IMG/VR virus record: IMGVR_UViG_3300030330_005751
Location: 1 to 43,317 of that record
Length of the DNA: 43,317 bases
From: a virus
Lineage: Duplodnaviria > Caudoviricetes
Reading direction: 5' to 3' (one strand)
The position numbers were made by a program, and so were the translations under genes. Of this stretch, positions 13,908-14,872 are shown in pieces. The notes below the pieces were generated by a model. That model was not told the origin of the DNA. It did not search any database and worked only from the letters and a program-made list of their open reading frames with translations. How positions within the stretch are numbered: the stretch's first letter is position 1; every line of letters begins with the position of its first letter.

Positions 13908-14289
13908 CGATGGCAGTCGACAGAATTTCACCTCTTGGTACTGGAATTTCGATGTCCGTTCCAGGAATAGTTATTTCTGTGACTTCTTTAAATACAGGTT
14001 TTTCGGTGGTCAGTCTGTTAATTGGCTGGCCGTTCTTCTGTTGGCTTTGGGCCTCCTGACTACGTTGCTCTTCTTCTTCGCGCTCTTTTTCCTCCTCCTC
14101 CTCACGTTCAATCTGTGCCTCGGCGAGCTTTTTCGTTACGTCTTGCCGCATCTGCGCCGCAGATGGAAGCACAGGAGGTGGAGCCGCAATGCTCGGATAC
14201 TCAATGTTCAGCTGCGGAAGTTCAAGCTCTGGCGGTAGCTCGTTTACGTTCGGCAGTCGAATAACTGGGATTTTTGGAAACAGGTCCAT
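13696..14289 (-). CDS. Pro-rich membrane-anchored hypothetical protein
   Basis: Pro-rich N-terminus, Glu-rich coil, hydrophobic segment ILSTAIVTAGASSVAAVAGTLVASALL, basic tail. Confidence 0.7.
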   Translation of the reverse strand: MDLFPKIPVIRLPNVNELPPELELPQLNIEYPSIAAPPPVLPSAAQMRQDVTKKLAEAQIEREEEEEKEREEEEQRSQEAQSQQKNGQPINRLTTEKPVFKEVTEITIPGTDIEIPVPRGEILSTAIVTAGASSVAAVAGTLVASALLKRLVPLLKPVIKIGVKRLAKLRGRPAPETFGRQRLRQRRNKQHTKQSPA

Positions 14290-14300
14290 AAGTGCCCAAT

Positions 14301-14333
14301 AAAAAACCCTTCCTGGTGTGAGGACAGGAAGGG
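14301..14333 (-). terminator. intrinsic terminator whose 9-nt loop is UCCUCACAC (Yfr1/Yfr10-like motif)
   Basis: Minus strand reads CCCTTCCTG-TCCTCACAC-CAGGAAGGG-TTTTTT: a perfect 9-bp stem with the loop at 14316-14324. Confidence 0.85.
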
Positions 14334-14361
14334 CCGGATCTCCCCTTACAGAGACGTTAGA

Positions 14362-14721
14362 TCAAAAAGAGAATTTTGCACCAATCTTGGTACCAAAGGA
14401 ATTCTCGGTGTCGCCGGTAATTCCGCTGAGCTCCCCGTAGATTCCGAACGAATCTGAAAGAGCAATCGATCCACCGCCCTTGGCTGAGAACTCAACAGAA
14501 GATTCTTCTCCTGACGGGGCCACGAGGCTAGGGCCACCCTGCACGTACCAAGCAGCTGAGCCTGCGGTGCCTTCGATACCGATGTGCATGTCGGTAGCGG
14601 TGCCGCCGTAGCCGCTCTCACTTCCGAAACCGGTGTTGTTCTCGATGTTGACATATGGAGAGGCCACAGCGGCCGGACCAATTGCCAGAGCGGCACAAAC
14701 GCCGATAATTGATTTGAGCAT
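14362..14721 (-). CDS. small outer-membrane beta-barrel (porin-like) protein
   Basis: Signal peptide MLKSIIGVCAALAIGPAAVA, Gly/aromatic amphipathic strands and C-terminal GTKIGAKFSF with a terminal Phe (BamA-type signal). Confidence 0.75.
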   Translation of the reverse strand: MLKSIIGVCAALAIGPAAVASPYVNIENNTGFGSESGYGGTATDMHIGIEGTAGSAAWYVQGGPSLVAPSGEESSVEFSAKGGGSIALSDSFGIYGELSGITGDTENSFGTKIGAKFSF

Positions 14722-14746
14722 TGTATGAGAGAAAGACGAATTCAAT

Positions 14747-14872
14747 CTAGAGGGGATCTTTCTTTCCGGCCAAAATAATCAGCGCACGCTGGTAGTAGAA
14801 GGTGTCAGTTTTACCGGCGGCCTCAAGAGCCTCCTTCACCTTCTTCCAGTTTTCGAGTGTGCGCTTGTCCAT
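14747..14872 (-). CDS. small hypothetical protein (41 aa)
   Basis: Not in the ORF track: MDKRTLENWKKVKEALEAAGKTDTFYYQRALIILAGKKDPL. It fills the gap cleanly and resembles a conserved small cyanophage protein (from recall). Confidence 0.75.
   Translation of the reverse strand: MDKRTLENWKKVKEALEAAGKTDTFYYQRALIILAGKKDPL

Follow-up and report, generated by a model that had tools for sequence, protein, structure and literature searches.

The cyanobacterial RNA Yfr1 (RF01116) carries the full 11-mer ACUCCUCACAC unpaired between two stem-loops, lies at guaB-trxA, and is 54-57 nt long in marine strains (PMC2190773, PMC2796815). Both som leaders of strain MED4 carry GTGTGAGG just before the ATG, the predicted Yfr1 site on the PMM1119 leader is UGUGUGAGGA, and Yfr1 represses som leaders about 3-fold in an E. 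coli reporter (PMC2796815). Mutation of the UCCU letters of the motif abolishes Yfr1 activity (PMC6778093, PMC2796815). Yfr10 is described as an RNA with its own transcript that presents the Yfr1-type motif in a loop atop a stem, its structure and position being otherwise poorly conserved (PMC2518516, PMC6778093). In E. coli, the DLP12 prophage encodes IpeX, a 167-nt small RNA that follows a phage porin gene, is processed from the porin transcript, and lowers the host porin OmpC in a manner that the source describes as not explained by complementarity alone (PMC12197685).

The locus described here lies on the minus strand of a near-complete virus record of 43,317 bases (the window, meaning that whole stretch of DNA), at the end of the tail module (Table 1). 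Behind a Phage_OMP gene stands a terminator hairpin whose loop, UCCUCACAC, agrees with the Yfr1 motif given in PMC2190773 at 9 of 11 nt and has a computed unpaired probability of 0.96; two G-U pairs extend the 9-bp stem. These particulars (the hairpin, its loop sequence, the extent of the match, and the exposure of the loop) had been given by an earlier reading of the sequence, hereafter the original prediction, and proved exact. The phage unit has in common with Yfr1 the core CUCACAC, an intrinsic terminator, and a predicted som site, and at a predicted length of ~47 nt it would be similar in size. Unlike Yfr1, it holds in the window 9 of the 11 letters of ACUCCUCACAC, displays the motif across the family either within a hairpin loop or 5'-terminally, and is found between the Phage_OMP gene and a phage gene. 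The phage unit resembles Yfr10 as described in having the motif in a loop atop a stem and otherwise little constancy of structure and position, and differs from it in being phage-encoded, in keeping 7-10 rather than all 11 of the motif letters across the family, and in lacking an adjacent yfr2 gene; a transcript of its own is predicted from the promoter signature. Its layout, with the RNA directly 3' of the gene for a phage outer-membrane protein, is shared with IpeX, whereas the far shorter predicted length, the predicted promoter of its own, the seed apparently copied from a host small RNA, and the absence of a detectable tyrosine integrase set it apart. MicL and DapZ are 3'-UTR small RNAs with an internal promoter at the gene end and a terminator shared with the mRNA; both are enterobacterial, Hfq-dependent chromosomal RNAs, and the likeness to them is one of layout only (gene-end promoter, shared terminator). 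The coupling of a phage porin gene to a small RNA, of which the author of the original prediction knew no example, has a precedent in E. coli IpeX (PMC12197685). No report of a Yfr1-like RNA in cyanophages was found among the titles and abstract openings of the open-access literature, in which PMC10690425 may list one unnamed, and the phage unit is apparently undescribed.

Table 1. Features of the Phage_OMP gene and the candidate small-RNA unit behind it (window positions)
Feature	Position	Strand	Remarks
Predicted +1 of the Phage_OMP gene	14737	-	16-nt leader; position inferred from the hexamer
Predicted -10 element TAGATT of the Phage_OMP gene	14744..14749	-	22 nt before the ATG
Phage_OMP gene (PF24653 / DUF680)	14362..14721	-	ATG 14721 to TGA 14362; 119 aa
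Predicted -10 element TAACGT of the small RNA	14354..14359	-	2 nt after the OMP stop
Predicted stand-alone small RNA, ~47 nt	14301..14347	-	+1 A14347 to the U tract; ends predicted
Terminator hairpin, 9 Watson-Crick pairs	14307..14333	-	Stem 14333-14325 with 14315-14307
Loop UCCUCACAC, Yfr1/Yfr10-type seed	14316..14324	-	Core UCACAC
U6 tract of the intrinsic terminator	14301..14306	-	On this strand only

Within the window alone, the loop 9-mer could be a product of chance: it occurs once, against an expectation of 0.42, and at least one copy was present in 37 of 100 shuffled sequences. Only a comparison of homologous loci can therefore decide the matter, and three samples were assembled that overlap in part and come from related phages, so that the counts below do not represent independent events. 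In the sample found through the protein, 30 of 126 distinct OMP 3' regions hold CTCACAC. A tree of 180 distinct proteins (score of at least 120, at least 75 nt of downstream sequence) places the rows with this heptamer in a single 53-row clade, and exact copies are found in none of the 120 rows of its myovirus/podovirus part. Forty of the 42 protein-found loci of the clade carry the core (C)UCACAC (33 exactly, 7 as single-letter variants); the other two, L328 and L330, lack motif, hexamer, and terminator together. The window protein itself falls, at no definite position, outside the clade (SH-aLRT 88), yet it carries the RNA unit; because of this placement, and because the tree was built by a quick method from few columns, no order of events is claimed.

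Searches that started from the DNA led to the same gene. A pattern describing loop and stem recovered, among the 120 matches listed, at least 21 units placed 32-38 nt past the stop of a Phage_OMP gene and all having a hairpin and a U tract; five others, which have a T run and no OMP gene, were dismissed as terminators on visual inspection. A second pattern yielded 51 matches that include 9 distinct real units, all behind Phage_OMP; here L540 was likewise dismissed by eye. The third sample was gathered through the next gene alone, blind to both OMP and motif, and its 80 loci reduce to 67 distinct ones, 63 with an OMP gene in reach and 4 cut ones that were set aside. The core is present in all 63 (53 CTCACAC, 6 TTCACAC, 2 GTCACAC, 1 ATCACAC, and 1 CTCGCAC), and 45 of these regions are new relative to the earlier samples. 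Over 54 distinct contexts the core letters are U53 C54 A52(G2) C54 A54 C54, within a consensus of U(35) Y(47) C(44) U(53) C(54) A(52) C(54) A(54) C(54) A(40). The downstream 197-aa gene, used as a query, returned no loci, and model R1 matched only the window copy, with none in KBS-S-2A, S-H1, MED4-184, S-2L, or 16 kb of Syn9. On this comparative evidence, the putative small-RNA unit is a conserved phage element strictly linked to the Phage_OMP gene.

Three architectures can be distinguished. In type A, as in the window, the motif occupies the terminator loop; in type B, it lies in the loop of a separate 5' hairpin that precedes one of several unrelated terminators; and in type C, known from three higher-GC loci (L282, L314, and L326), it would be single-stranded at the 5' end. 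Across 20 type-A regions UCACAC is invariant, while all 8 consensus stem pairs show double-sided changes. Pairing is possible in 96.9% of stem cells, compared with 56-79% for slid partners, and none of 500 shuffles reached the observed score. The original prediction had proposed that a meaningful loop would stay constant over a covarying stem and that a meaningless one would vary freely among homologous loci; the loop core is conserved and the stem covaries. Because the stems covary and the motif moves between three architectures, selection appears to act on the motif letters and their exposure rather than on one hairpin. Near-identical OMP proteins are also found with different RNA architectures, A or B (L275/L317, L345/L354, and L325 with L280/L333), suggesting that recombination is frequent where the OMP gene ends.

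The unit would work in the manner of Yfr1 and Yfr10, although by model score it belongs to neither. The family shares 6-7 core letters with the Yfr1 motif, five of the nine type-B units found by the second pattern reach 10 of 11, and the type-C core continues UCACACCACAC, as in Nostoc Yfr1. The type-C extension and the 10/11 type-B units argue for a tie to Yfr1 and against a chance 7-mer. In the covariance-model comparison that had been suggested, RF01116 has no match at the unit at E up to 10. A search of Rfam at E up to 10 gave seven weak matches and no Yfr family, and nothing reached a gathering score in the window or in 12 loci. A match to RF01116 at 1616-1662 on the minus strand (14.3 bits, cut-off 38) was rejected; it lies inside an open reading frame (1173-1760) and is taken as chance, while holding ten Yfr1 motif letters.

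Several features indicate that the RNA might have its own promoter. In the type-A alignment, an invariant T, A, and T stand at -10-box spacing just past the OMP stop. TAnnnT is found right behind the stop in 47 of 60 distinct regions, and most regions that lack it read TATAAC instead; the corresponding counts are 20 of 108 for other Phage_OMP genes and 5 of 64 for open reading frames of the window. Counted over 59 regions, T-12 is present in 58, A-11 in 59, and T-7 in 48, these three letters being partly fixed by the search expression, and the inner three positions vary freely. All 63 regions of the third sample have a hexamer (36 TAnnnT, 27 TATAAC). The predicted +1, 7 nt past the hexamer, is a purine in 59 of 59 regions, in 63 of 63 of the third sample, and in all 45 new regions, against 12 of 18 controls, position -4 being purine-rich as well; a pyrimidine just precedes it in 45 of 59. 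The predicted RNAs are ~40-60 nt long with a median of 48, two rows having been mis-ended by the script, and in type B the predicted +1 is the first base of the motif hairpin. Cyanobacterial promoters commonly have a -10 element without a -35 element (PMC3219970). A scan of the window for consensus promoters and terminators missed the hexamer and the 9-nt-loop terminator alike.

The conserved -10 element and +1 purine behind the stop thus indicate a separate promoter and point to a stand-alone RNA, beyond a merely processed 3' end. The earlier proposal that one transcript supplies both protein and small RNA is disfavored for the same reason. Six sequencing runs showed small shares of this sequence, and contigs from four of them were aligned with it. 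The sole RNA contig that covers the unit (14198-14356, depth 2.1) crosses the terminator and begins 9 nt upstream of the predicted +1. Because a run of unspecified type also has a contig end close by, at 14354, the end at 14356 is uninformative on the start; as evidence on the predicted start, the contig is uninformative or mildly contrary. Overall, the unit quite probably encodes a real small RNA. Its reading as an antisense RNA, a sponge for Yfr1, was rejected because the hexamer and the U tract are on the minus strand.

The gene that precedes the unit is a clear member of the Phage_OMP family (DUF680, IPR056410), which is common in cyanophage isolates (465 records). As originally described, it encodes a 119-aa protein of outer-membrane type, and the protein matches PF24653 over positions 1-122 of 122 (E 2e-34, 118.7 bits, cut-off 27) as well as phrog_417. 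The label "porin" has fared less well. The AlphaFold model (pLDDT 78) has an N-terminal signal-like helix followed by six beta strands and a C-terminal Phe, and its closest structures in the PDB are OmpX-like barrels, none with E < 0.001. A porin is expected to form a closed barrel of at least eight strands per chain and to act as a channel; the monomer model has six strands, so that "porin" is only a guess. The family has been described as an incomplete barrel that may dimerise to twelve strands (preprint 10.64898/2026.10.24.761521), and the window protein may likewise be a half barrel, with a dimer possible. The TAGATT hexamer upstream of its start is exactly where it had been reported, and its TAG doubles as the stop of an upstream 41-aa open reading frame. 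In OMP leaders of the lineage, a TAnnnT hexamer occupies this place in 30 of 30 cases, with a purine at +1 in 26 of 30. A conserved ACYGTC lies ~16 nt upstream of the OMP -10 box in the leaders of L026, L153, L264, L275, L280, and others, often as part of a short GTC-n-GAC inverted repeat; it is a possible regulator site and is absent from the window leader.

The carriers appear, from their sequences, to be one lineage of uncultured ~43-kb cyanosiphoviruses, of which no isolate was found. The window encodes siphovirus-type head, portal, terminase, and tape-measure proteins together with a DNA polymerase, ThyX, and a sigma-70 factor, and its capsid protein is 47% identical to that of AG-345-A17, 41% to that of S-2L, and ~30% to those of MED4-184, KBS-S-2A, and S-H1. 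A search for tyrosine integrases (PF00589, this type only) found none in the window or in any of the four relatives searched. Assignment to the integrase/nblA lineage of 10.1101/325100 was considered and rejected on the description given in that paper. The host is probably Synechococcus, given 50% GC and the siphovirus relatives. Two scans of genome contigs, weak because of their few seed patterns, gave no Phage_OMP relative, and a pattern scan of viral contigs for som starts gave seven matches, all unrelated.

The Phage_OMP genes of myoviruses and podoviruses have other 3' ends, the RNA unit being found only behind the gene of this siphovirus lineage. In podovirus-type loci (L206, L230, L322, L078, and others), the stop is followed by a conserved hairpin, present in 23 of 167 distinct 3' regions, that has an internal loop and a GUGAG-bearing apical loop and is located in the leader of a psbA-like gene. 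This loop could form a pseudoknot with a CUCA further downstream, or pair with the Yfr1 motif; Rfam has no match to the hairpin at E up to 0.5. A second short and conserved leader, the G-rich GGTGGGnGG, separates Phage_OMP from a psbA-like gene in 32 of 167 distinct regions (L204, L005, L020, and others) and gave no Rfam match in L204. Two of the podovirus-type loci also match the known Glutamine-II riboswitch motif (L322:3963-4015 and L230:4671-4725). In the myovirus-type loci L002, L235, L244, L268, L360, L375, and L379, an extended -10 element, TGCTATAAT or TGTTATAAT, abuts the terminator stem behind Phage_OMP, so that transcripts would start inside the hairpin. Syn9 has a late-promoter-to-terminator unit with the head GUGUGAAGG between gp134 and gp135 (L415:11411-11470), and upstream of gp134 a TGTGAGG just before the start codon (L415:11173-11190). 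The latter might be a Yfr1-type target in a myovirus mRNA; related leaders of S-SM1 and S-RIM2 depart from it at one letter.

If the RNA acts by base pairing, its target probably lies outside the phage. Neither the window nor five relatives have GTGTGAG at a gene start, and in two relatives the sole copy is the antisense of the unit itself. The Phage_OMP leaders are free of a complementary site in all 177 distinct cases, that of the window included, which agrees with the original observation that the leader lacks a GUGAGGA-type sequence; the phage gene would therefore escape repression. The family consensus U-Y-C-UCACAC-A is complementary to the PMM1119 site UGUGUGAGGA, and the most frequent substitutions, A to G and C to U, retain G-U pairing with the som site. 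The window loop is predicted to form 9 bp with the PMM1119 leader at -14.8 kcal/mol, compared with a bulged duplex at -11.2 kcal/mol with the 5' end of MED4 Yfr2. Over the 54 contexts, a som leader gave the best duplex in 49, the Syn9 unit in 5, and Yfr2 in none, in a test in which MED4 sequences stood in for the probable Synechococcus host, two som partners were offered, and the cost of opening the stem was ignored. The originally proposed silencing of host porins therefore stands as the best computed fit among the partners tested, and the alternative proposed with it, sponging of Yfr2, does not share this standing. Two features weigh against som targeting. The UCCU part is loosely kept (position -2 is U in 29 and C in 18 of 54 contexts and position -3 is U in 35 of 54, the window itself retaining UCCU), and the seed is a short one of 7-9 bp in a small loop.

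Other explanations would accommodate some of these observations. That the RNA serves to sponge host Yfr2, freeing Yfr1 and Yfr10 and shielding other Yfr2 targets, draws on the report that Yfr1 and Yfr10 have a stronger binding to Yfr2 than to the ppa mRNA (PMC6778093) and on the computed pairing of the window loop with MED4 Yfr2, and sponging could likewise lower porins. This is nonetheless distinctly unlikely, because the MED4 Yfr2 duplex has only five contiguous pairs before the bulge, none of the 54 contexts reaches seven, and the upstream UCC required beyond the bulge is the less conserved part of the motif. The loop might instead be a protein-binding site or a cis element at the 3' end of the OMP mRNA, with the hexamer serving the next gene or being a leftover. 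The real units among the pattern matches listed are all directly behind Phage_OMP and none stands alone, protein binding has been raised for the Yfr1 motif (PMC2190773), and the RNA contig reads through the terminator. Set against this, a promoter 12-25 nt before a strong terminator would serve the next gene poorly, the motif hairpin of type-B units begins with the predicted +1, a placement to be expected of a separate RNA, and the commonest loop substitutions are wobble-compatible, making a cis or protein-binding role unlikely.

The hairpin has also been considered as a mimic of the anticodon arm of tRNA-Val(CAC), a decoy that would divert an anticodon nuclease or, against competitors, anti-tRNA-Val RNAs. 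CUCACAC is exactly the 7-nt anticodon loop of the tRNA-Val(CAC) in L089, many type-B loops are 7 nt long, and Syn9 has a unit with a GUGUGA head. Loop sizes of 6-13 nt, with the 7-nt anticodon register (CAC at loop positions 3-5 on a 5-bp stem) in only 11 of 54 contexts and an off-centre 9-nt loop in the window, nevertheless fit this idea badly; type C has no hairpin, CGC variants would alter the anticodon, and the Syn9 head would place an A against the first C of the core, a letter conserved in 44 of 54 contexts. Such mimicry is judged quite improbable. A tRNA pattern scan gave no match, and none of five myovirus isolates has a GTGTGAG-headed unit. Inheritance of the loop without selection from one ancestral terminator is the least probable account, having only a very slight chance of being correct. 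All carriers do belong to one phage lineage, and the window region retains 47-78% similarity to those of the third sample, but the positions that flank the core hold almost no information, whereas five core positions are invariant or nearly so, and the motif persists in unrelated stems and places, observations that largely refute the absence of selection.

The preferred reading, to which a probability of roughly 0.55 is given on sequence grounds, is that the phage unit imitates Yfr1/Yfr10 and uses its seed to act on mRNAs of the host. A sigma70-type promoter at the OMP stop would yield the ~47-nt RNA ending at the terminator, and read-through from the OMP promoter would produce the same 3' end. 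The loop would then pair with GUGUGAG(G) at the ribosome-binding region of host mRNAs, som porins foremost, and block translation; the type-C RNA would be expected to prefer GUGUGGUGUGA sites. More weakly, outer-membrane assembly might be shifted from host porins toward the small barrel protein of the phage, which might serve to hinder competing phages from entering or to release capacity of the assembly machinery. The absence of an integrase and the abundance of Yfr1 argue against a large effect. In S. elongatus, Yfr1 reaches as many as 18,000 copies per cell, so that an extra copy may add little. Porins are usually long-lived and no tyrosine integrase was found, which would leave little time within a lytic cycle.

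A bolder version of the mimicry reading can be held only tentatively, at somewhat less than even odds. The lineage, which would be widespread, might carry in this unit an "auxiliary regulatory RNA" of ~47 nt with a promoter of its own, one that reproduces the seed of the most conserved small RNA of the host, has been rebuilt on three or more scaffolds, and is adapted to whichever Yfr1 variant a host group has. Such an RNA would take over the Yfr1 regulon (porins and carbon-metabolism mRNAs), swap host porins for the phage half-barrel, and exclude rival phages.

There are several reasons why this locus might merit experimental attention. The RNA is predicted to be shorter than 50 nt and would be cheap to test, and a MED4 som-GFP reporter with Yfr1 controls exists (PMC2796815). 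The natural variants would map which letters of the Yfr1 motif a target requires. The common but unexplained DUF680/Phage_OMP gene would gain a testable context. Finally, cyanophages are known for carrying host protein genes, and a copied host small-RNA seed, if true, would extend this copying to regulation.
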